A DNA stretch of 32,141 nucleotides, taken from positions 1 to 32,141 of the forward strand of contig JAAXHB010000028.1 in the NCBI GenBank assembly GCA_012271125.1, given 5' to 3'. Of this stretch, positions 3,615 through 30,917 are shown piece by piece. Position numbers and translations under genes: made by a program. Within the stretch, counting starts at the first letter, position 1; each line of letters opens with the position of its first letter. The notes below the pieces were generated by a model. It saw only the letters and a list, made by a program, of their open reading frames with translations. It had not been told where the DNA came from and searched no databases. Origin of the DNA: Actinomycetota bacterium. GTDB lineage: Bacteria; Actinomycetota; Acidimicrobiia; Acidimicrobiales; Aldehydirespiratoraceae.

Positions 3615-4697
3615 GTGACTACTAACATCGCGACGATGCCTAAGGATCTTCTCGACAGCAAACAACAGCTAGATCACCGCAAGGCAGCGATTCTCGAAGC
3701 GATCATCCGTGAATACATCTCAACCGCTCAACCAGTGGGATCAGGCAGCATTTCCGAAGCTCCCGGCGTTGAAGTCTCCTCAGCCACCGTGCGTAACGAA
3801 ATGGCAGCCCTAGAAAACGATGACTATCTCTGCCAACCCCACACCAGCGCCGGACGAGTGCCAACCCCCAAGGGCTACCGATATTTCGTTGACAAAATCC
3901 GTGGCATGGCACCCAACCTCGACACCGCCGACCGTCGCCAAGTCAGCGATTTCTTCTCTGTCGCCCACAACGAACTCTCAACCATGCTTAACCACACCAC
4001 CGGCCTGCTGTCGGACCTCACCGACTGGGCTGGACTAGTGGTAAGCCCCAGCCCAGTCAACGACACCGTCCGCTCAGTTCAACTCGTTGACATCGCCCCA
4101 GGACGGGTGTTGCTCGTGGCGGTCATGTCAAGCGGTGCCGTAGAGAACCGCGCCCTTGAAGTTGACCCAACAACGACATCAGAAGAAGTCGACGCCGCAT
4201 CCCAAGAACTCACAGCCCGCATCGTGGGACGTTCACCGACAACAGCGACGACTACAGCGACGACTACACCGACAACAACAGACGATTCCGATGCAACGTT
4301 GACAGTCAAAACCTCCACTCTTGCCGATACCGCCATCCGTGCCTTATCCAACAACATCGACCATCACGAAGTCTTCGTCGGCGGCACCGCCAAACTCGCC
4401 GCAGCGTTTGGTGCCGCCGAACAACTTCGTGAAGTCCTAAACGTTCTTGAACAACAGCTAGTTGTCGTCTCACTAATTCGTGAAGTCATAGACAGAGGCA
4501 ACCGTGTCGCCATTGGTGCTGAATCAGGCATCGGCTCTTTGTCGGAATGCTCGCTGGTGTTAGCACCTTATGAGGTCAGTGGGGGAGCAACCGGCACAAT
4601 CGGCATCCTCGGTCCGACCCGAATGGACTACCCCCAGGCACTCTCAGCTGTGGCGGTGGTCAGCGAACGCCTCAGCAGCGTGCTCGGCGACGGCTAA
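3615..4697 (+). CDS. hrcA: Heat-inducible transcription repressor HrcA, carrying a Thr-rich low-complexity insertion
   Basis: AILEAIIREYISTAQPVGSGSI and ATVRNEMAALENDDYLCQPHTSAGRVPTPKGYRYFVD signatures. It lies immediately upstream of dnaJ. The start is GTG 3615, with ATG 3636 as an alternative. Confidence 0.9.
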   Translation: MTTNIATMPKDLLDSKQQLDHRKAAILEAIIREYISTAQPVGSGSISEAPGVEVSSATVRNEMAALENDDYLCQPHTSAGRVPTPKGYRYFVDKIRGMAPNLDTADRRQVSDFFSVAHNELSTMLNHTTGLLSDLTDWAGLVVSPSPVNDTVRSVQLVDIAPGRVLLVAVMSSGAVENRALEVDPTTTSEEVDAASQELTARIVGRSPTTATTTATTTPTTTDDSDATLTVKTSTLADTAIRALSNNIDHHEVFVGGTAKLAAAFGAAEQLREVLNVLEQQLVVVSLIREVIDRGNRVAIGAESGIGSLSECSLVLAPYEVSGGATGTIGILGPTRMDYPQALSAVAVVSERLSSVLGDG

Positions 4698-4752
4698 GCC
4701 CAAACACATCTCAAAAACATCTTTGGCCCACAAACATCATTACAACCCCTAG

Positions 4753-5862
4753 ATGAGCGACCATTACGAAACCCTTGGCGTTTCCCCCGACTGCACAGAC
4801 GAAGAACTAAAACGCGCCTACCGCAAACTCGCCCGCCAACATCACCCCGACGCCAACCCCGGCGACACCCAAGCCGAAGCACGTTTCAAAGAAATCCGCT
4901 CCGCCTATGAAGTGTTGTCAGATCCGAAACGACGCTCGTTCTACGACCGCTACGGCACAGACGACCCCTCCGCCGCATCAATGTCAGACCCCTTCTCCGG
5001 CGGACTAGGTGGACTCTTTGATGCTTTCTTCGGCGGTGACTCACCCTTTGGCGGAGGCCAACGCCGCTCCGGACCACCCCGAGGCGAAGACCTTGAAACC
5101 CACGTCGACCTAGACCTTCAAGATGTCATCTTTGGTGCTGAACGCGAAGTTCAAGTCCGCACCGCAGTGCGCTGCGAAGAGTGCCAAGCTTCAGGCGTAG
5201 CCCCCGGCACCCAACCCATTCGCTGCGGCACCTGCCAAGGAACAGGTCAAGTCACACAAGTCGCCAAAACCATGCTCGGCCAGTTCCGCACCGTGACCCC
5301 TTGTAACCAATGCCGCGGTGAAGGAGAGGTCATCAAGAACTATTGCCCAACCTGTGAAGGCAACGGTCGCCGCATCGAAGAACATGACTACCCCATCAAG
5401 GTGCCCGTTGGCGTTGACGACGGCACCACCTTGCGTCTCGAAAGCAAAGGCGCAGTCGGCCCCAGAGGCGGCCCTGCTGGTGACCTATTCGTGCGCATCC
5501 GAGTCCGCCCCCATGAACGATTCAAGCGTGACGGCGATCACCTAGTCCACGACTACCACATCGGCTTCACCCAAGCTGCTCTAGGCAGCGAGTTTGAATA
5601 CGAAACCTTCGACGGCACCCAACCGCTCAAGATTCCCGCCGGCACCGAAGCCGGCACCGAAATCCGACTCAAGGGCAAAGGCGTTCCCAACGTGCGCACC
5701 CACCGGCGTGGTGACATTTACGTACGCGTAGTTGTCGACATCCCCGACGATCTCACCCCAGAGCAAGCCGACCTAATCCGCCAACTAGCCGAACTACGTG
5801 GCGAAGACGTTGCCGAGCCAAGCGAAGGACTGTTCGACAAGGTCAAATCCGCTTTCCGCTAA
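4753..5862 (+). CDS. dnaJ: Molecular chaperone DnaJ
   Basis: J-domain with HPD (ARQHHPDANPG), a G/F-rich region and four CxxCxGxG zinc-finger repeats (CEECQASG, CGTCQGTG, CNQCRGEG, CPTCEGNG). Confidence 0.95.
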   Translation: MSDHYETLGVSPDCTDEELKRAYRKLARQHHPDANPGDTQAEARFKEIRSAYEVLSDPKRRSFYDRYGTDDPSAASMSDPFSGGLGGLFDAFFGGDSPFGGGQRRSGPPRGEDLETHVDLDLQDVIFGAEREVQVRTAVRCEECQASGVAPGTQPIRCGTCQGTGQVTQVAKTMLGQFRTVTPCNQCRGEGEVIKNYCPTCEGNGRRIEEHDYPIKVPVGVDDGTTLRLESKGAVGPRGGPAGDLFVRIRVRPHERFKRDGDHLVHDYHIGFTQAALGSEFEYETFDGTQPLKIPAGTEAGTEIRLKGKGVPNVRTHRRGDIYVRVVVDIPDDLTPEQADLIRQLAELRGEDVAEPSEGLFDKVKSAFR

Positions 5863-6596
5863 TTCGGCAACATCAACACCACCCCCGGGGTCAAGTGCTG
5901 ATGATCAGAACCCAGCCGATAAGCGTTCAGCTCAACTAGCTCCATCCAATATGTCAACACATCGTGAGGCTCCATCAACCCACTCCGAGACTGCACAACA
6001 TCAGCAGCAATGCCCCAAAGGTTTTCACCTGGCATTACCAACCAAGTCCGCCCTAACGGACCCGCCACTTCAAAATCGTCATCAAATTCATCCCAGTCAA
6101 GCTCATCTGCACCTTGGTTGATTTGATACTGCTCAAGTTCAGCGACCGGTTCTGGCTCAGACGAATGAGTAGGGGAGTGGTGATATGTCAGCTGCCGTTG
6201 ATCGGTTACTAGTTCAACAGCAGCCACGTCATCGTGGGCATCGGCAACAGATGGAGCAACCGCTGCCCCCAACGCAACTGCAAATGTCCCCGACACGACC
6301 GCTCGCCGAAGCAGCGGCGCAGCAAACCAACTCGAAACGTCAAGCATCCAGGTCCAGCGCGTGGCAGTAGCCACAAACACCAACGAGCTAGCTATTGCCA
6401 AATAACCACACAAGACCAGTCCCAGCAAACGTGCCAGCGCCACCGTTGCCATCGGCGTGCCAACCGACGTCCACCAGCTCTCCAACTGCGTCGGCTTGCC
6501 CAACGGGGGAGTGCTGACCTGAACGCCTAGCCGCACGAGCACCAGAAAACCAAGCAGTCCCGCAGCTGCTGTGAATAACGACCTCTTGCCGCTCAT
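5859..6596 (-). CDS. Membrane protein with about 3 TM helices, an acidic linker and a C-terminal LysM-like domain
   Basis: Hydrophobic segments (LFTAAAGLLGFLVLV, LLGLVLCGYLAIASSLVFV, AVVSGTFAVALGAAVA). The C-terminus WLVMPGENLWGIAADV...ELNAYRL...PGVVLMLPN fits the LysM pattern. ATG 6596 overlaps the upstream stop (ATGA), and the track's longer start at 6659 was rejected. Confidence 0.6.
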   Translation of the reverse strand: MSGKRSLFTAAAGLLGFLVLVRLGVQVSTPPLGKPTQLESWWTSVGTPMATVALARLLGLVLCGYLAIASSLVFVATATRWTWMLDVSSWFAAPLLRRAVVSGTFAVALGAAVAPSVADAHDDVAAVELVTDQRQLTYHHSPTHSSEPEPVAELEQYQINQGADELDWDEFDDDFEVAGPLGRTWLVMPGENLWGIAADVVQSRSGLMEPHDVLTYWMELVELNAYRLGSDHQHLTPGVVLMLPN

Positions 6597-7507
6597 GACA
6601 CAGCTTGTGTGTTCGAGGCGAGCGAAACATCGGTTTGTGACGCATTTGATGGGTGACATACGTCACCAACACCGCCAATGCCATCGCCGGCATCAACACC
6701 GTTGCCAAGCACCAGAACTGTGGCAAACAGAAACCCCATAACGCCAACACCTCCAACGAGCAGATTCCTCTTTGGCAGATTTCGCTTTGGCAGATTCCGC
6801 TTTGGCAAATCCCTTTTTGGCAGATTCCTTGTTTCCGTATCCGGCTTTGACATGTTGCGTCTCTGCCCAAACAGCCGAGCCGGCCTCAACTCCCGCAATC
6901 GTGTTTTTCGCTTAGAGCGAACCAGCTGAGCGGCAACAGAGCGAGCAGTGCGTGCGTTCAATGTCTGATCCAAACGCAACGCCACATCACGAGCCCCGAT
7001 CTCGCCAGCCCTCAACTCACCGGCAATCGCAACCAACCTCTCACCGACAGCACCCCGACTAGAGCGACTCTCACCGCACGCCAAATGCGCCAACGCCTCA
7101 AGATCGGCACGCCGGTTCTCGTCGCTGGCGTCACCAGCTGCGCTAAACCCGCACAACACCGGACGGTCACGCTCGCCGTGCAACACATGACTTGCGTTTA
7201 GTTGACAATGAGCCATGCCCATGTCGTGCAAGTCCGCAATCACACCAGCTAAGGCAGCAATCGCTTCGACTCGCTCACCAGGTTCACCCAGCGGACGACT
7301 AGCCCAGGTGTCAGAGCTCACAAACAATGTCTGCAAGACCCGCCCACCATCTGAGGTGTGTTCGAGCCCAACGAGTCGCACCACGCCAGGATGATCAATC
7401 CGATCCAAAACCTCAGCCTCGTGATCTGCCTTGGCAGCCAGCTCAGCCGAAAGCTCCTTAACAGCAATCAGCTGGTCATTGGATCGGCTAACCGTCACCG
7501 CCGGCAT
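6593..7507 (-). CDS. Membrane-anchored Ser/Thr-kinase-like pseudokinase with (LPKRN)x5 juxtamembrane repeats
   Basis: Kinase-fold landmarks are present: IAVKEL (VAIK-like), EAEVLDRIDHPGVVRL (helix C / HPN-IV-like) and DLHDMGMAHCQLNASHVL in place of HRDLKPxN. CGFS replaces DFG and there is no GxGxxG loop. A C-terminal TM helix LLVGGVGVMGFLFATVLVLG follows. Confidence 0.6.
   Translation of the reverse strand: MPAVTVSRSNDQLIAVKELSAELAAKADHEAEVLDRIDHPGVVRLVGLEHTSDGGRVLQTLFVSSDTWASRPLGEPGERVEAIAALAGVIADLHDMGMAHCQLNASHVLHGERDRPVLCGFSAAGDASDENRRADLEALAHLACGESRSSRGAVGERLVAIAGELRAGEIGARDVALRLDQTLNARTARSVAAQLVRSKRKTRLRELRPARLFGQRRNMSKPDTETRNLPKRDLPKRNLPKRNLPKRNLLVGGVGVMGFLFATVLVLGNGVDAGDGIGGVGDVCHPSNASQTDVSLASNTQAVS
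6761..6835 (-). repeat. 5 x 15-bp tandem repeat inside the pseudokinase CDS, encoding LPKR(N/D) units
   Basis: Plus-strand units are cagattcctctttgg / cagatttcgctttgg / cagattccgctttgg / caaatccctttttgg / cagattccttgtttc. Confidence 0.9.
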
Positions 7508-7522
7508 GACGCCAAACCCTTC

Positions 7523-7554
7523 AATGTCATGTATATAAATGTCATGTCAATGAC
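7523..7554. promoter_or_regulatory. Candidate operator in an AT-rich divergent promoter region: AATGTCATGT direct repeat plus an inverted ATGAC
   Basis: AATGTCATGT occurs at 7523-7532 and 7538-7547 (15-bp spacing), followed by CAATGAC at 7548-7554. TATATAA and TATACA -10-like boxes are present. The site lies in the 152-bp AT-rich spacer between divergent genes. Confidence 0.35.
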
Positions 7555-7659
7555 TATACACATCGGCTATGACAAAATCAAATCGTAGAAAACCACACTA
7601 AACGCTCCTATATTCAAGCGCAAATCCAACCCCCATCCTCAAAGCGGTAGCCTTCAAAC

Positions 7660-9213
7660 ATGGCAAACAGCACGCCGAGCACGCCAACCAAGATGGCCCA
7701 GACCGCCAGCTCCAAGACCGCCAAAATCGCCGCCGTAGAACCTGGCTCACCCGCCGAGCGTGCCGGCCTCATCGCCGGCGAAGAAATCCTCACCGCTGAC
7801 GGCAAACCAGTCCGAGACGTCATCGCTTGGCAAGCCCTAATCGACCAAACCGAAGTCCCCCTCGAAATCACCACCAACGGCAAAACCCGCCAAGTCGAAG
7901 TCCGCCGCAACTGGGGCGAAACCTTCGGCGTAGAACTCGACACCGCAGTGTTCGACGGCGTCCAAACCTGCGACAACCACTGCGAGTTCTGCTTCATCCA
8001 CCAACTCCCTAAAGGCATGCGCCGCTCGCTCTACCTCAAAGACGACGACTACCGACTCTCATTCCTCTACGGCAACTTCACCACCCTCACCCGCTTCACT
8101 GAAATGGACTACGAACGTGTCCTCTCCGAAAACCTCTCACCCCTATACGTCTCCATCCACGCCACCGACCCCGACATCCGCGCCCAAATCCTCCAAAACC
8201 GCCGAGGCGCACTCTCGCTGCGATGGCTGCGCCTGCTACTCGATGCCGGCATCGAAATCCACGGCCAAGTCGTCGTCTGCCCCGGCGTCAACGACGGCAC
8301 CGTCTTGCAAGACACCCTCTGTGGCGTCCTCGACCGCTACCCCGAACTCGCCTCGCTGTGCGTAGTGCCTCTCGGCGTCTCGGACTACAACCGCCAAGCC
8401 CGCATGCGCCCCCACACCCCAGCCGAATCCGCCGCCGTGCTCGCCGAAGTCCACCGCTGGCAAGACCAATACCTCAACGTCTTAGGCCGCCGCCTCGTCT
8501 ACGCCGCCGACGAGTATTACTTACATTGCCAACAACTCTTCCCTGCTGCTGAAACTTACGAAGACGTAGACATGTGCGAAGACGGCATCGGCATGGCCCG
8601 CTCCTTCATTACCGAATTTCTTGGGGTGTCAGAGCGCGGTCACAACGAGGGGGACGTGGCGTCGGCCCATAGGACGACGCCCATCAACAACAGCTCCGCG
8701 CCGCGTGCTGGTTTTTTCGCTTGGGTTGATGGTGCGCCCGCTGAGGGCTACCGCGCCCCCCGCAACGACGACACTCCAGTACAAATCAAACCATCAGCAG
8801 ATGCTCCTATCGGCATTCTCACCGGCGAACTCGGCGCCCAAGTCCTTAAGCCCCTTATCAACAACGACAACGGTGGCATGCCAGAGCGCGGACACAACGA
8901 GGGATCCGTGGCGTCGCACCATAGTGCGACGCCCATCAACAACGACAACAACAACATTCGGGTTATTCCCGTTAAGAACGACTTCTTCGGCGGCAACATT
9001 GGCGTAACCGGCCTAATGACCGGTGCCGACCTAACGACAACACTCAACAATCAGCCCGAAAACCACCGCTATCTACTGCCCGACGTCTGCCTAAGCCGAG
9101 GCAAGTTCCTAGACGGACTCACCCCAGCAGACCTGCCACGCCCAGTTGAAGTAGTCCCAACCCACGGCGCAGCCCTCCGCCAAGCAATAAGACCCCAAGC
9201 CCTAAAACAATGA
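7660..9213 (+). CDS. PDZ domain / radical SAM / DUF512-type protein carrying two in-frame repeat-element insertions
   Basis: PDZ-like IAAVEPGSPAERAGLIAGEEIL, radical-SAM CDNHCEFCF (CxxxCxxC), and C-terminal blocks EDGIGMARSF and VIPVKNDFFGGNIGVTGLMTGADL typical of DUF512. Confidence 0.8.
   Translation: MANSTPSTPTKMAQTASSKTAKIAAVEPGSPAERAGLIAGEEILTADGKPVRDVIAWQALIDQTEVPLEITTNGKTRQVEVRRNWGETFGVELDTAVFDGVQTCDNHCEFCFIHQLPKGMRRSLYLKDDDYRLSFLYGNFTTLTRFTEMDYERVLSENLSPLYVSIHATDPDIRAQILQNRRGALSLRWLRLLLDAGIEIHGQVVVCPGVNDGTVLQDTLCGVLDRYPELASLCVVPLGVSDYNRQARMRPHTPAESAAVLAEVHRWQDQYLNVLGRRLVYAADEYYLHCQQLFPAAETYEDVDMCEDGIGMARSFITEFLGVSERGHNEGDVASAHRTTPINNSSAPRAGFFAWVDGAPAEGYRAPRNDDTPVQIKPSADAPIGILTGELGAQVLKPLINNDNGGMPERGHNEGSVASHHSATPINNDNNNIRVIPVKNDFFGGNIGVTGLMTGADLTTTLNNQPENHRYLLPDVCLSRGKFLDGLTPADLPRPVEVVPTHGAALRQAIRPQALKQ
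8630..8691 (+). repeat. In-frame palindromic repeat element, copy A (hairpin 8658-8681)
   Basis: cagagcgcggtcacaacgagggggacgtggcgtcggcccataggacgacgcccatcaacaac aligns with copy B over 62 nt. It encodes ERGHNEGDVASAHRTTPINN. Confidence 0.85.
8882..8943 (+). repeat. In-frame palindromic repeat element, copy B (hairpin 8910-8933, perfect 10-bp stem, CATA loop)
   Basis: cagagcgcggacacaacgagggatccgtggcgtcgcaccatagtgcgacgcccatcaacaac encodes ERGHNEGSVASHHSATPINN. It is flanked by the 15-bp direct repeat ATCAACAACGACAAC (8857-8871 and 8935-8949). Confidence 0.85.
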
Positions 9214-10556
9214 CCCTGCCCGTAGTCGCCGTTGTCGGACGTCCCAATGTTGGCAAGTCCACCCTTGTCAATCGCATTATTGGACGCCGCGAAGCCATCG
9301 TAGAAGAACGCCCCGGTGTAACCCGAGACCGCAAATCCGTAGCCGCCGAATGGCAAGGCAAGCAGTTCACACTCGTCGACACCGGCGGCTGGATGGCAGG
9401 CGGCACCGCCCTTGACACCAAAGTCGCCACCCAAGCCGAACTCGCCGCCCAAGGCGCCGACGCAGTGTTATTCGTCGTCGACGCCACCGTCGGCTTCACA
9501 CACGACGACCAAGAAGTCGCCCAAGTCCTCTACCCAATCGAAGCCCCAGTCATAGTCGTCGCCAACAAGGTCGACAATGCCAGTCAAGCCGACGCAATCT
9601 GGGAACTCCTCGGCCTCGGCCTCGGCGACCCCGTCGCCATCAGCGCCCTTCACGGCAAAGGAACCGGCGACCTCCTCGACCTACTCCTAGACAGTATTAA
9701 TGGCAGCGACGCCACGAGCGCCGCTGCCGCCACGAGCACCAGCACTAATGAGGGGTCAGTGGCGTCTCCCCATAGGGAGGCGCCCATCAGCACCGACTTC
9801 TCCGTCGCCCTCGTCGGACGCCCCAACGTCGGCAAATCCACCCTCTTCAACCGACTCATCGGCGAAGACCTCTCCATCGTCCACGACCAACCCGGCACCA
9901 CCAGAGACAGCGTCGACACCGTCGTCAACACCCAAGCCGGCACCATCAGATTCATCGACACCGCCGGCATGCGCCGCAAAGCCCGCATCGACTCTGGCAC
10001 CGAGTACTACTCCCTGGTGCGAGCCCTGCGCTCAGTCGACCAAGCCGACGTCTCCTTGCTAGTCATCGACTCAGCCATCGGCGTCACCCACCAAGACCAA
10101 CGCCTCGCCGAACGCATCGACGCCGCCGGCTCCCCAATCGTCGTCATCTGCAACAAATGGGACATCCTCACCACCGAAGCCAAAGAAAAAATCGCCGAAT
10201 CCCTCGAACACAAACTCAGCTTCATCGGCGGCGCACCCACCCTGCGCATGAGCGCCCTGCATGGCAAAAACGTCGACAAACTCTGGCCCGCCCTTCAAGA
10301 ATCCCTCACCGCCTACCGCACCCGCATACCCACCCGAGCCGTCAACGAAGCCATCCGCGCTGCCCAATCCGCCCAACCCGCCCCCGCCGGTGCTCGCATC
10401 CTCTACGCCACCCAGGGCGCAACCGACCCCCCCACATTCACCCTGTTCGTCAACCGAGACCTGCCCCGCACCTACCTGCGTTACATCGAAAACCAACTCC
10501 GCCACGCTTTCGACCTGACCGCCACCAGCATCAAGCTGCGAGTACGCCGCCGCTAG
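9210..10556 (+). CDS. der: Ribosome-associated GTPase Der (EngA), with a repeat-element insertion in the inter-domain linker
   Basis: Two tandem GTPase domains, each with GRPNVGKSTL, then DTGG / DTAG and NKVD / NKWD, plus a KH-like C-terminus. The ATGA overlap with the upstream CDS suggests translational coupling. Confidence 0.95.
   Translation: MTLPVVAVVGRPNVGKSTLVNRIIGRREAIVEERPGVTRDRKSVAAEWQGKQFTLVDTGGWMAGGTALDTKVATQAELAAQGADAVLFVVDATVGFTHDDQEVAQVLYPIEAPVIVVANKVDNASQADAIWELLGLGLGDPVAISALHGKGTGDLLDLLLDSINGSDATSAAAATSTSTNEGSVASPHREAPISTDFSVALVGRPNVGKSTLFNRLIGEDLSIVHDQPGTTRDSVDTVVNTQAGTIRFIDTAGMRRKARIDSGTEYYSLVRALRSVDQADVSLLVIDSAIGVTHQDQRLAERIDAAGSPIVVICNKWDILTTEAKEKIAESLEHKLSFIGGAPTLRMSALHGKNVDKLWPALQESLTAYRTRIPTRAVNEAIRAAQSAQPAPAGARILYATQGATDPPTFTLFVNRDLPRTYLRYIENQLRHAFDLTATSIKLRVRRR
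9747..9794 (+). repeat. In-frame palindromic repeat element, copy C core (hairpin 9761-9784)
   Basis: aatgaggggtcagtggcgtctccccatagggaggcgcccatcagcacc aligns codon-for-codon with the 48-nt cores of A and B. It encodes NEGSVASPHREAPIST. Confidence 0.8.
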
Positions 10557-11950: not shown

Positions 11951-12025
11951 CGGGCTGTGGCGCAGCTTGGTTAGCGCGTCGGTCTGGGGGACCGAAGGTC
12001 GGGAGTTCAAATCTCCCCAGCCCGA
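11951..12025 (+). tRNA. tRNA-Pro (anticodon GGG), 75 nt, CCA not encoded
   Basis: Folded by hand. Acceptor cgggctg/cagcccg, D stem gcgc/gcgc, anticodon stem tcggt/accga with loop ctGGGgg, variable loop aggtc, T arm gggag-ttcaaat-ctccc, discriminator A. Confidence 0.9.
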
Positions 12026-13962: not shown

Positions 13963-15075
13963 GTGAGCAGCCCCCAACTCAACACTGCTGCCACTGAGCT
14001 ATTCGGCGTCCGCTATCCCATAGTGCAAACCGGCATGGGCTGGGTCGCCGGCCCCTCCCTAGTTGCTGCCACAGCCAACGCTGGCTGTCTCGGCATCCTC
14101 GCCTCAGCCACAATGACCATCGACGAACTACGCCAAGCCATCGCCGACATTCAACAACGAACCGACAAGCCCTTCGGCGTCAACATGCGTGCCGATAGCG
14201 CCGACCTCGGTGATCGCATCCAAGTTCTTATTGCTACCAATAACGACGACGACAACAACACCGACGACGACAACAACAATGCCAACACCGACAACAACCA
14301 GATACGCGTAGCTAGTTTCGCCGGCGCACCCGCAGCCGACGACATCAAACAACTCCAAGACGCCGGCATCGCAGTAATGCCAACAGTCGGCGCGGTGCGT
14401 CACGCAGAAAAAGTCGCCGAACTAGGCGTCGACGTCATCATGTGCCAAGGCTCCGAAGGCGGTGGCCACACCGGAGTCGTCCCCACATCGCTGCTATTAC
14501 CACAAGTCCTTAACGCTGTTGACGTGCCTGTCATCGCCGCCGGAGGCTTCACCGACGGACGCGGCCTCGCCGCAGCCCTTGCCTGGGGTGCCAGCGGCAT
14601 CGCCATGGGCACCCGCTTTTTACTGACCCAAGAATCCAAAGTTCCAGCCAACATTAAAACCGCCTACCTCAACTCCTCGGTCACAAACACAGTCGTCACA
14701 GACCGAATCGACGGCTCACCGCAGCGAGTCATCAAAACCAAACTCGTCGACACCCTCGAATCACGCAACCCTTTGCGCTGGCTCTTAACCCTCGTCCCAT
14801 TAACCCTCGTCAACGCCCTGCGTTTCAGAAAACTCATCGGAATGCCCACACGACAACTCCTGCGCGAAGCCCGCTCAATGAAACGCAACATGTCGCTGCA
14901 GCAAACCTTGATGGCACCAAACGCCGCCATGCTCACTCGTGCCAGCCTCGTCGAAGGCAACCACAGCGGAGTCCTACCCACCGGTCAATGCGTAGGACTC
15001 ATAGACGACCTCCCAACGTGTGAAGAGCTCGTGCAGCGCATAGTCACCGACGCTCAAGTCGCCCTCACCCGCTAA
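13963..15075 (+). CDS. Nitronate monooxygenase / 2-nitropropane dioxygenase-family FMN oxidoreductase with an N/D-rich insertion
   Basis: YPIVQTGMGWVAGPSLVAATANAGCLGILAS, GSEGGGHTG and VIAAGGFTDGRGLAAALAWGASGIAMGTRFL match the NMO/FabK-like TIM-barrel pattern. GTG start. Confidence 0.8.
   Translation: MSSPQLNTAATELFGVRYPIVQTGMGWVAGPSLVAATANAGCLGILASATMTIDELRQAIADIQQRTDKPFGVNMRADSADLGDRIQVLIATNNDDDNNTDDDNNNANTDNNQIRVASFAGAPAADDIKQLQDAGIAVMPTVGAVRHAEKVAELGVDVIMCQGSEGGGHTGVVPTSLLLPQVLNAVDVPVIAAGGFTDGRGLAAALAWGASGIAMGTRFLLTQESKVPANIKTAYLNSSVTNTVVTDRIDGSPQRVIKTKLVDTLESRNPLRWLLTLVPLTLVNALRFRKLIGMPTRQLLREARSMKRNMSLQQTLMAPNAAMLTRASLVEGNHSGVLPTGQCVGLIDDLPTCEELVQRIVTDAQVALTR
14239..14298 (+). repeat. 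GAC/AAC triplet low-complexity tract (NNDDDNNTDDDNNNANTDNN) inside the NMO CDS
   Basis: aataacgacgacgacaacaacaccgacgacgacaacaacaatgccaacaccgacaacaac. Confidence 0.9.
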
Positions 15076-15114: not shown

Positions 15115-15855
15115 ATGTGTGGCAGATACGTCAGCTCAACCCCACCAGCTGAGCTAGCCGAACACTTCAACGCCCTCGCCGCACCTGGAATAGTCGACAA
15201 GAGCTCTGCCAAGTTCAACCCCAACTTCAATGCCGCCCCCACCCAAAGCGTTTTCGCCATTTACGAACCCGCAACTAAAAACTCTGGCAAAGATGCCAAA
15301 GACTCAGAACTTGCCGGAAAACGCCTCCTAGACAAGTTCCACTGGGGTCTCATTCCCTTCTGGGCTAAAGACCCAAAAATCGGCAACCGCATGATCAACG
15401 CCCGCGCCGAAACCATCACCGAAAAGAACTCCTACCGAGTGCCGCGAAGTCGCCGCCGTTGCATAATCACCGCCGACGGCTTCTACGAGTGGTTTAAACC
15501 CGCAGACGCGAAAAATAAGACCCCTATGTACATCACCCGCACCGATGGCGAACTCTTTGCCTTCGCCGGCCTCTGGGAAACCTGGCGCCCCGATCCTGAT
15601 CAACCCACTATTCAATCTTGCACAATTATCACCTGCGAAGCCAACGACAAGATGGCAGAAATCCATCACCGCATGCCGGTGATCCTGCCATCCACACTCT
15701 GGGACGCTTGGCTCGACACCGAAAACACCGACTCCGCAGCAGCAGCCGACATGCTCATCCCAGCCCCATCAGGACTAATTCAATTCCACCCCGTATCCAC
15801 CGACGTCAACAACATCCGCAACAACTTCGCCGAACTAATCACCCAAGCCGACTGA
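15115..15855 (+). CDS. SOS-response-associated peptidase (SRAP/YedK family, abasic-site processing protein)
   Basis: N-terminal MCGRY with catalytic Cys2, plus WGLIPFWAKD, NARAETI and the ADGFYEW..F block. Confidence 0.9.
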   Translation: MCGRYVSSTPPAELAEHFNALAAPGIVDKSSAKFNPNFNAAPTQSVFAIYEPATKNSGKDAKDSELAGKRLLDKFHWGLIPFWAKDPKIGNRMINARAETITEKNSYRVPRSRRRCIITADGFYEWFKPADAKNKTPMYITRTDGELFAFAGLWETWRPDPDQPTIQSCTIITCEANDKMAEIHHRMPVILPSTLWDAWLDTENTDSAAAADMLIPAPSGLIQFHPVSTDVNNIRNNFAELITQAD

Positions 15856-15895: not shown

Positions 15896-16284
15896 ATTGC
15901 TTCTGACAGCTGTGCCGCTAACGCATCTAAATCGTCGCCATCTGGCTCGGTATCAGCTTGGGCAAAATCCAAATGCTCCATATGATCAATCGGCACTACA
16001 TGCAAATGCGTATGCGGCACCTCAAATCCGGCGATCATCAAGCCCACCCGTGTCGGTGCCAGCAACTTCATCTGTGCTTGCGCCACCCGCTGCGCCACGC
16101 CCATAAGGTGCGCCGCCAAATCAGTCTCAAGGTCAGTCCAATGATCCACCTCAGCTCGAGGCACCACCAGCACATGACCTCGATTCAGCGGCCGCACATC
16201 TATAAAGGCAACACAGTGCTCGTCTGTCCAAACAAACCGAGCTGGTATTTCACCATCGATGATCTTGGTAAAGATTGACGCCAT
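15886..16284 (-). CDS. HIT-family (histidine triad) nucleotide hydrolase
   Basis: MASIFTKIIDGEIPA N-terminus, GHVLVVPR and the histidine triad HTHLHVVP. Confidence 0.9.
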   Translation of the reverse strand: MASIFTKIIDGEIPARFVWTDEHCVAFIDVRPLNRGHVLVVPRAEVDHWTDLETDLAAHLMGVAQRVAQAQMKLLAPTRVGLMIAGFEVPHTHLHVVPIDHMEHLDFAQADTEPDGDDLDALAAQLSEAMKS

Positions 16285-16927
16285 GGGAGCAGACTACGCC
16301 AACCCTCAACCCACCCCTAATTCCGTCGACCCCTCACCCCCGTCCGACTTCGGGCGCATCTTCACCTTCCCCAACTTCATCTCCATTGCCCGCCTCGCCA
16401 GCATCGCCGTGTTCATATGGCTCCTGTTCGACGTCGGCGACCGTTGGACAGCCGCCCTGCTATGGGGTGCCCTCGGTGCCACCGACTGGGTCGACGGCTG
16501 GTGGGCACGCCGTTTCAACTCCGTCAGCGAACTCGGCAAAATCCTCGACCCAGTCTCAGACCGAGTCGTCCTCATCGTCGCCGTCTTCGCAGTCGGCATC
16601 GACGGCTCTGTCCCATGGTGGCTCGTGATCGCAACCCTCGCCCGCGAAGTCTCAATGTCAATTATCATCCCAATCCTCAACGCCATGGGCGTCCCCCGAC
16701 TGAATGTCACCTGGTGGGGCAAATGCGCCACCTTCGGCCTCTACTTCGCTTTCCCGTTACTGCTCGCCGGTGCCGCCGACCCTGCCCACCTCAACGCCTC
16801 TATCGCTGAGGCAATGCGCATCGCCGGCTGGGTATGTGCCGCACCCTCGCTCATCTTCAGCTATGCCTCAGCCATCCAATACCTAAACATAGGCATCGCC
16901 ACCTTGCGCCAAGCCCGCTCCACCTGA
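16283..16927 (+). CDS. pgsA: CDP-alcohol phosphatidyltransferase (PgsA-like)
   Basis: The motif DWVDGWWARRFNSVSELGKILDPVSDRV matches D(x2)DG(x2)AR...G(x3)D(x3)D, and the protein is multi-TM. Its position upstream of gcvH matches Mycobacterium Rv1822. ATG 16259 is an alternative start. Confidence 0.8.
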   Translation: MGADYANPQPTPNSVDPSPPSDFGRIFTFPNFISIARLASIAVFIWLLFDVGDRWTAALLWGALGATDWVDGWWARRFNSVSELGKILDPVSDRVVLIVAVFAVGIDGSVPWWLVIATLAREVSMSIIIPILNAMGVPRLNVTWWGKCATFGLYFAFPLLLAGAADPAHLNASIAEAMRIAGWVCAAPSLIFSYASAIQYLNIGIATLRQARST

Positions 16928-30601: not shown

Positions 30602-30880
30602 ATGAATAAAGGTGAACTCGTCGCAGCAATGGCGGGTCAAGCCGATGTCTCTCAGGCTGATGCTGGAAGGTGTCTCGACGCCTTCCTGTCAACAGTTGAG
30701 GACGAAGTATGCAGCGGCGGCGACGTAAACATCTCGGGTTACCTAAAGTTTTCCCGTACTCGCCGCAGCGCACGCACCGCCCGCAACCCAAGAACGGGCG
30801 AAACCGTCAATGTGCCAGCGACAAACGCAATGAAGGTGCAAGTCGGTTCCAAGCTCAAGGCTGCTGTTAAAGCTTCCTAA
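30602..30880 (+). CDS. hup: HU/IHF-family nucleoid-associated DNA-binding protein
   Basis: MNKGELVAAMA and the RTARNPRTGE arm motif, 92 aa. A GAAAGGAG Shine-Dalgarno lies upstream. Confidence 0.9.
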   Translation: MNKGELVAAMAGQADVSQADAGRCLDAFLSTVEDEVCSGGDVNISGYLKFSRTRRSARTARNPRTGETVNVPATNAMKVQVGSKLKAAVKAS

Positions 30881-30886
30881 AGCAAT

Positions 30887-30917
30887 GGTGGGTACCGGCA
30901 AGTCGCCGGTACCCACC
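30887..30917 (+). terminator. Perfect 13-bp stem / 5-nt loop hairpin after hup (I-shaped terminator, no U-tract)
   Basis: ggtgggtaccggc-aagtc-gccggtacccacc begins 6 nt after the hup stop. Confidence 0.6.

Follow-up and report, generated by a model that had tools for sequence, protein, structure and literature searches.

An in-frame hairpin repeat in the DUF512 and der genes of an uncultured Acidimicrobiia bacterium

Introduction

By what route does one short hairpin come to be read three times within two adjacent housekeeping genes? The question is raised by contig JAAXHB010000028.1, a single metagenomic contig of 32,141 nt from an uncultured Acidimicrobiia bacterium (Actinomycetota), analysed over its whole length and hereafter called the window. 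Two of its genes, encoding a DUF512 protein and the GTPase Der, form a co-oriented pair in which the stop codon of the first overlaps the start codon of the second. Two copies of a hairpin-bearing repeat lie in the first gene and a third one in the second. The preferred explanation, to which even chances are given, is that of a small unit resembling the repetitive extragenic palindromes (REPs), which would have spread by a copy-and-paste route, in at least one case locally, and is translated as part of loops.

Structure of the repeat

The three-copy hairpin repeat is real. A repeat finder groups the copies as one family (8622-8691, 8874-8943 and 9725-9794), all of them on the plus strand, sharing the frame of their host gene and free of stop codons. 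Their coordinates, strand, frame and encoded peptides (NEGDVASAHRTTPINN, NEGSVASHHSATPINN and NEGSVASPHREAPIST) had been reported in a preliminary description of the window and are borne out. The pattern GTGGCGTCNNNCCATAGNNNGRCGCCCATCA matches the window three times with 0 mismatches, for 0.00 matches expected over 100 shuffles. With a covariance model of 51 positions, the copies score 74-80 bits, whereas the next-best match in the window, with filters off, reaches 10.6 bits. The alignment of copies 1 and 2, which had been described over 62 nt, extends in fact over 70 nt (8622-8691 with 8874-8943), with 59/70 positions identical (84%).

Each copy folds into a 10-bp stem closed by a CAUA loop, 29 of the 30 stem cells being paired across the copies; the hairpin of copy 2 gives a predicted RNA fold of -27 kcal/mol (z = -4.6). 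The unit is laid out as GTGG, CGTCNNNC, CATA, GNNNGRCG and CC(CAT), and is preceded in all copies by a conserved 12-nt 5' leader, AAYGAGGGNNNN. The parts that are invariant in the three copies include the AAYGAGGG leader, GTGG, the CATA loop and the ATCA/CAUCA 3' flank. Beyond the hairpin, copies 1 and 2 also have a 22-nt left arm in common. The components of each copy, with the direct repeats that flank two of them, are listed in Table 1.

The scan of the window against Rfam 15 returns a tRNA at 11951-12025 as the sole match at gathering level and leaves the repeat unmatched, and a permissive scan of 8550-9850 gives matches that are all far under threshold. A Rho-independent terminator is ruled out, the hairpins having no T-tract after them. 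A look-alike near 4540, inside hrcA (TTATGAGGTCAGTGGGGGAG), is rejected as a copy because it has no hairpin.

Table 1. Positions of the repeat copies, their hairpins, the flanking direct repeats and the two host genes
Feature	Position	Strand	Remarks
Host gene 1: PDZ / radical-SAM-like / DUF512 protein (TIGR03279 family)	7660..9213	+	
Copy 1, 70-nt unit in the DUF512 gene	8622..8691	+	78.6 bits
Copy 1, parts: left arm, AACGAGGG, 4-nt spacer, hairpin, CATCAACAAC	8622..8691	+	Translated ...GVSERGHNEGDVASAHRTTPINN
Copy 1, hairpin GGCGTCGGCC / CATA / GGACGACGCC	8658..8681	+	9/10 pairs, one G.A mismatch
15-nt direct repeat ATCAACAACGACAAC, left copy flanking copy 2	8857..8871	+	
Copy 2, inserted segment (63 nt)	8872-8934	+	
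Copy 2, 70-nt unit in the DUF512 gene	8874..8943	+	84% identical to copy 1; 80.1 bits
Copy 2, hairpin GGCGTCGCAC / CATA / GTGCGACGCC	8910..8933	+	Perfect 10-bp stem
15-nt direct repeat, right copy flanking copy 2	8935..8949	+	
Host gene 2: der (engA), double-GTPase with KH-like domain	9210..10556	+	
CAGCAC, left half of the 6-nt direct repeat flanking the copy 3 core	9740..9745	+	
Copy 3, 42-nt core in the inter-G-domain linker of der	9746..9787	+	Translated (T)NEGSVASPHREAPI; 73.8 bits for 9743-9794
Copy 3, hairpin GGCGTCTCCC / CATA / GGGAGGCGCC	9761..9784	+	10 pairs including one U.G wobble
CAGCAC, right half of the 6-nt direct repeat flanking the copy 3 core	9788..9793	+	

Insertion into the host proteins

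Judged by alignment, copies 1 and 2 are lineage-specific insertions in the DUF512 protein. The comparison covers 18 proteins, the closest being 65% identical, together with L230, the contig of the syntenic closest relative. The segments SERGHNEGDVASAHRTTP and GGMPERGHNEGSVASHHSATPINND are unique to the protein of the window and stand between conserved blocks, and both copies are absent from the 17 orthologues and from L230, whose gene order matches. Relative to the orthologues, the inserts amount to ~18 aa for copy 1 and 25-26 aa for copy 2, the latter made up of 63 nt plus the 15-nt duplication. Copy 3 can be parsed as a 42-nt core and a 6-nt direct repeat, the two halves of which stand exactly 48 nt apart. 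Thus, the 48-nt core formerly delimited is indeed shared by the copies, but it is a definition of its reader and not the size of what was inserted.

The structure model of the DUF512 protein is of moderate quality (mean predicted local distance difference test, pLDDT, of 60.6). Both inserts are predicted in coil with pLDDT <50, between confident secondary-structure elements, the first one following helix 310-321 and the second one standing between helix 390-401 and strand 433-438. The two halves of B. subtilis Der are matched in alignment by residues 3-161 and 199-448 of the window's Der, whereas residues 162-198 have no aligned counterpart in the solved structures; copy 3 corresponds to residues 180-195 within this linker between the G-domains. 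The three sites are therefore consistent with tolerant loops, as first proposed.

An insertion between conserved blocks had been claimed for all three copies, and it stands for copies 1 and 2. Copy 3 cannot be demonstrated as a net insertion because the G1-to-G1 distance of Der varies from 174 to 322 aa among 70-odd relatives, with 193 aa in the window. The Der of the window is also equally distant (64-67% identity) from clades having quite different linkers. The linker DNA of some relatives, of similar length, shares GAGGG, TGGCG and GAGGCG blocks, a weak resemblance. That copy 3 is a native der linker is retained only as a minor possibility, as the closest relative has an unrelated linker; the resemblance of 'HSATPND' in the L230 linker to copy 2 is discounted, having no nucleotide basis.

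Across Acidimicrobiia, the DUF512 loop that runs from GYRAPR to the next strand is a hot spot of indels, in which G/A/S/D-rich inserts reach ~90 residues. Orthologues with loop indels include P0003, P0004, P0006, P0008, P0025 and P0036 (alignment columns ~390-480), and P0025 carries an internal tandem duplication in which ...ESAAEAVAAGPVDSRP... occurs twice.

Constraint on nucleotides

The window has an extreme compositional skew, amounting over the whole contig (1-32141) to -0.23 for GC and +0.16 for AT, which tracks the DNA strand and not the coding strand. Indeed, third codon positions have C3 of ~0.6 and G3 of ~0.1 in plus-strand genes, as against G3 of 0.35-0.5 and C3 of 0.12-0.2 in minus-strand genes. 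The C/A-rich strand, which carries 17 of the 22 genes, would be the lagging strand under the usual rule. Since the syntenic closest relative (67% GC) has zero skew, the skew is specific to the lineage of the window. The repeat has a GC skew of ~0, at odds with the C-rich strand as initially remarked. Its invariant core employs codons that are rare in plus-strand usage (GGG, 2% of Gly codons; AGG, 1%; GCG, 5%; ACG, 7%; TCG, 9%). Among plus-strand genes, copy 1 is the most G3-rich of 5,706 windows of 16 codons, and copy 3 has the second-lowest codon score.

The differences between copies follow the hairpin. The three loop-proximal stem pairs differ yet stay complementary, reading GGC/GAC (with one mismatch), GCA/TGC and TCC/GGA, with compensatory double changes in two stem pairs and one pair being U.G. 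As the varying bases straddle codon boundaries, this co-variation alters amino acids (A/H/P and T/A/E). No codon position is favoured among the invariant columns, which number 12, 11 and 11 of 16 at positions 1, 2 and 3, respectively. Copies 1 and 2 differ at 11 positions, all of them in the left arm, the 4-nt spacer or the variable stem pairs, with none among the other 38 positions (P ~6e-5, for position classes chosen post hoc). Stem co-variation, indifference to codon position, clustering of differences and rare codons, taken together, mean that what is maintained in the repeat, or has reached these sites recently, is a nucleic-acid structure rather than a peptide.

Comparison with known palindromic elements

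REP families are usually high-copy, mostly intergenic and often arranged as inverted dimers. Those of the GTAG class are associated with a gene for a REP-associated tyrosine transposase (RAYT, of the Y1/HUH type), which is flanked by REPs. In-frame palindromic insertion is already known from other phyla and, by analogy, the repeat fits the published REP layout and the behaviour of intragenic REPs and Rickettsia palindromic elements (RPEs), in a phylum new for it.

As defined by Di Nocera et al. 2013 (PMC3733652), REPs combine a GTAG or CGTC terminal tag with a 6-9 bp stem, a loop and a short tail. Most GTAG-20 units of Opitutus terrae bear GTGG as their tag, and families hold sub-families with alternative complementary stem residues and G.T pairs (PMC3733652). 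Intragenic REPs occur in several species, most of them in O. terrae and R. conorii (RPE-4, RPE-6), sometimes two per open reading frame (ORF), and lie in flexible linkers or loops, hence their possible neutrality according to the authors. Those tagged with GTAG or CGTC are found in several phyla, the word 'Actinobacteria' being absent from the main text (PMC3733652).

The repeat shares with REPs a short G+C-rich stem-loop, measuring ~28-31 nt from GTGG to the tail for a REP criterion of 20-40 bp. Its stem has 10 bp, or 8 bp if the GG/CC pairs are assigned to tag and tail; GTGG stands at the 5' foot of all three copies but can partly pair, the tail is short and conserved, and the loop has 4 nt, as compared to 4-5 nt in REPs. 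Alternative complementary bases are found in two stem pairs along with one U.G pair, and the copies lie inside ORFs, in linkers or loops and twice in one ORF, where they are read through as extra residues. CGTC is present in the repeat but lies within the stem. In contrast with REPs, the 12-nt 5' leader is an extra, as is the 22-nt left arm of two copies. Copy 2 also has a 15-nt flanking duplication, no RAYT is present in the window, and the host belongs to Actinomycetota.

The RPE family had been put forward as the closest precedent. The analogy is fair, but the published precedent is broader since it includes GTAG- and CGTC-tagged intragenic REPs of several phyla (PMC3733652). The RPE-1 type is ~150 bp long, with dozens of copies and ten families in an obligate intracellular alphaproteobacterium (Ogata et al. 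2000, 2002, via PMC10969869). Compared by description, RPEs and the repeat have in common an in-frame palindromic insertion, here in two housekeeping genes, a conserved peptide and coil or linker sites, whereas the repeat is 42-70 nt long with three copies, against ~100-150 bp and tens per genome.

Bacterial transposable elements of the miniature inverted-repeat type (MITEs) with in-frame ORF fusions include Coxiella QMITE1, intragenic enterobacterial repetitive intergenic consensus (ERIC) sequences and Anabaena MITEs (PMC10969869, PMC5896051). The repeat is likewise small, non-autonomous and fused in frame, with flanking direct repeats at copies 2 and 3. It is at or under the usual MITE size, however, and its flanking repeats are inconsistent (15 nt, 6 nt, none). 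Membership in the MITEs fails because the repeat lacks terminal inverted repeats: its termini (TGGGGTG... and ...ATCAACAAC) are not complementary, and its sole palindrome is internal.

Origin and distribution of the repeat

According to the preferred reading, a small REP-like palindromic unit (AAYGAGGG leader, GTGG tag, stem of 8-10 bp, CATA loop and CC(CAT) tail) would have been copied into coding DNA at three places of the DUF512-der gene pair. The ribosome would read through it, adding 16-26 residues to disordered loops or to a linker. The conserved tag, stem and loop may be the target of a propagation machinery acting on single-stranded DNA, or a feature that stalls replication, and new copies would arise by copy-and-paste. 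Copy 1 may have given rise to copy 2, or the reverse, by local templated copying of a 70-nt segment, with re-annealing via the 9-nt microhomology ATCAACAAC producing the 15-nt flanking duplication. The copies would persist since in-frame, stop-free loop insertions are tolerated.

Several observations weigh against this reading. The repeat is known solely from this contig, with three copies in all within 1.2 kb; compared with REPs, these are intragenic direct singletons, none being intergenic within 32 kb. The covariance model finds no copy in the other 31 kb of the contig, including ~20 intergenic regions. None is present in 80 Acidimicrobiia DUF512 loci (1.27 Mb) or in L230, and strict and loop-independent DNA patterns have 0 matches in the GTDB species genomes. 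No transposase, of the RAYT/IS200 type or other, is found by Pfam scan among the 24 proteins of the window. Copy 1 has no flanking repeat, nor would mechanisms of the RAYT type be expected to create one. GTGG is not clearly an unpaired tag, as its last two G are able to pair with the tail's CC. Finally, the covariation of the stem is drawn from three sequences, and equally good values are given by 21-55 of 500 shuffles.

Thus, the search for further copies in relatives and sequence collections, on which a dispersed family of the kind first suggested would depend, yielded none, and the idea of a mobile family is unsupported. Some candidates were examined and rejected. A loose hairpin pattern has 74, 71 and 4 matches in GTDB genomes, JGI metagenomes and IMG/VR, respectively, which are attributed to chance because none has the GAGGG and ATCA flanks and most are non-complementary stems or generic GC hairpins. 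Three matches to the left-arm pattern (in Chloroflexia, Miltoncostaeaceae and Verrucomicrobiae) have no hairpin downstream and are also attributed to chance. At the protein level, a composite four-frame peptide profile gives 6 candidates sharing words, none of which scored, and a concatenated peptide query gives no candidate, an uninformative result since the window's own protein was missed too. A peptide profile run against 1.84 billion cluster representatives finds the motif in none, with a limited power as inserts in conserved proteins are hidden behind the representatives. Two repeat proteins from this search are rejected as they merely sum weak stretches. P0121, a predicted database protein from outside the window that surfaced through such summed weak stretches, has 524 aa and six tandem units of ~85 aa, and its sequence ...SPDVASLIRATPVN...AFPGCRFAHPGY... 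resembles translated REP-type DNA.

The same strain is represented in the ENA assemblies ERZ23495589 (L231) and ERZ27298218 (L232) by short contigs that end before the repeat. L231 (ROBB19-1_SAMN11878276_METAG scaffold_18831) is 100% identical to the window over 3,841 nt (3975-7815) and breaks at position 7815, inside DUF512 and upstream of the repeats.

The junctions bear on the manner of copying. No other short-range exact direct repeat of the contig is as long as the perfect 15-nt one around copy 2, the first 9 nt of which (ATCAACAAC) also form the 3' end of copy 1's unit. Deleting the 63-nt segment and one 15-nt repeat restores PLINNDNNNIRV, with a loop length near that of the orthologues (PL(I/V)xSLGRxDVRV). 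A 15-nt duplication starting in a 9-nt microhomology, along with a shared left arm, is as expected from a re-annealed templated copy of 70 nt, so that copy 2 seems to have been templated locally on copy 1. These junctions point to copy-and-paste over classical transposition. Three insertions in the same frame had been emphasized earlier. The common frame is indeed observed, but the events number about two because copy 2 copies a 70-nt segment that includes copy 1, and the shared frame is not significant because two of the three sense frames and up to two antisense frames are open through the repeat.

The same junctions are also accommodated by a duplication that is purely local, without any repeat family. 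A single hairpin-bearing segment, which may have belonged to the der linker from the start, would have been copied into the adjacent gene on two occasions, through template switching during replication or through repair mediated by microhomology. Its hairpin would then promote stalling and switching, with no function and no dedicated enzyme. This explanation, possible but unlikely in our view, agrees with the confinement of all copies to 1.2 kb and their absence elsewhere (contig, 80 loci, L230), with the 22-nt left arm common to copies 1 and 2, with the 9 nt at the start of the copy 2 duplication that match the 3' end of copy 1, and with the 6-nt repeats found 48 nt apart around copy 3. It is further favoured by the fact that copy 3 brings no net gain in length over some relatives, the linkers of which share GAGGG, TGGCG and GAGGCG. 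However, neutral duplicates should diverge evenly, yet the differences are crowded into 10 positions while 38 others stay untouched, and the changes in the stem preserve its complementarity. Rare codons ending in G are kept at invariant positions though G3 is ~0.10 on this strand. The resemblance to the linkers of relatives is moreover weak, and the linker of L230 is unrelated.

Another rival reading is a cis-element selected at this locus, with three hairpins acting in the DUF512-der mRNA or DNA and not as selfish DNA. They could be, for instance, sites for an RNA-binding protein or an RNase involved in transcript stability or processing, embedded in tolerant coding segments, or sites tied to the control of ribosome assembly by Der, with compensatory amino-acid-changing substitutions resisting a strand-specific mutational bias that counts among the strongest observed in bacterial contigs. 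Indeed, the copies cluster in one gene pair with overlapping stop and start codons, all in sense orientation; no variation is seen in the loop or in the unpaired flanks (AAYGAGGG and CAUCA), as against co-variation inside the stem; the U.G wobble of copy 3 pairs on the sense strand alone; and the G-rich sequence persists against an extreme mutational skew. Nevertheless, the repeat is absent from every relative examined, including L230, and is therefore not a conserved feature of the operon. It has no Rfam match, no precedent was found for regulatory hairpins added within coding loops, and an origin of the REP type gives the same conservation pattern through propagation from a master copy. A selected cis-element is thus regarded as rather improbable.

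An ordinary peptide motif, NEGxVASxHxxxPI, acquired at the protein level with the hairpin being incidental, would account for the single frame and the nine invariant residues of all copies, and is nonetheless very improbable: conservation is no lower at third codon positions than at the first two, the variable residues are exactly those encoded by the co-varying stem bases, the codons are the rarest synonymous choices in inserts predicted to be disordered, and the motif is in none of the 1.84 billion protein-cluster representatives, a search of limited power for inserts in conserved proteins. An internal translation start giving truncated DUF512 and Der isoforms is hardly credible, even though GAGGG, 4 nt and an in-frame GTG are invariant in the three copies, for a motif of the Shine-Dalgarno (SD) type within 25 nt is found at just ~3 of the 22 gene starts of the window, and the hairpin, starting from the GTG's third base, would occlude initiation.

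If the REP-like unit of the preferred reading belongs to a dispersed family, in-frame palindromic insertions would extend to Actinomycetota, in a free-living lineage; "REP-decorated proteins" are documented so far mainly in Proteobacteria, Verrucomicrobia and Rickettsia. The unit would in that case also be an unusually clean object of study, the extreme strand-specific mutation pressure of the host being a built-in clock that separates constrained from unconstrained nucleotides. If the repeat is a local triplication only, it is a small curiosity on hairpins seeding insertions that make new protein loops.

Other features of the window

The gene content of the window is all housekeeping and includes holA, lepA, hrcA, dnaJ, DUF512, der, a SpoIIE-type phosphatase, gcvT/gcvP, aroC and others. 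An exact look-up of seven other proteins of the window gives no database record. The minus-strand gene at 6593-7507 encodes a 304-aa protein with no Pfam match, in which a tandem repeat with a period of 15 nt (6745-6864) encodes (LPKRN/LPKRD)n; part of this tandem repeat is missing from the L230 orthologue.

Other insertions relative to L230 are found at 14233-14292 (NMO), 4269-4307 (hrcA), 15271-15312 (SRAP) and 16280-16351 (CDP-alcohol phosphatidyltransferase). These lineage-specific insertions are mostly N/D/T-rich and of low complexity, as in ATNNDDDNNTDDDNNNANTD, with GAC, AAC and ACC codons and no hairpin in any of them. Region 4222-4291 of hrcA has the lowest codon-usage score of all plus-strand genes; its annotated frame (TTATTTATTTPT) has rare Thr codons, whereas another frame (DNSDDYSDDYTDNN) has preferred ones, which suggests a low-complexity insert that arose in, or shifted from, another frame.

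A perfect 13-bp stem-loop (GGTGGGTACCGGC AAGTC GCCGGTACCCACC) occupies 30887-30917; the HU-like gene whose stop codon it follows by 7 nt (30602-30880) is among the few in the window with a clear SD motif. The structure is rejected as a relative of the repeat, being an ordinary 3'-end stem-loop. With no T-tract after it, this hairpin is probably a 3'-end stabiliser or a terminator devoid of a U-tail.

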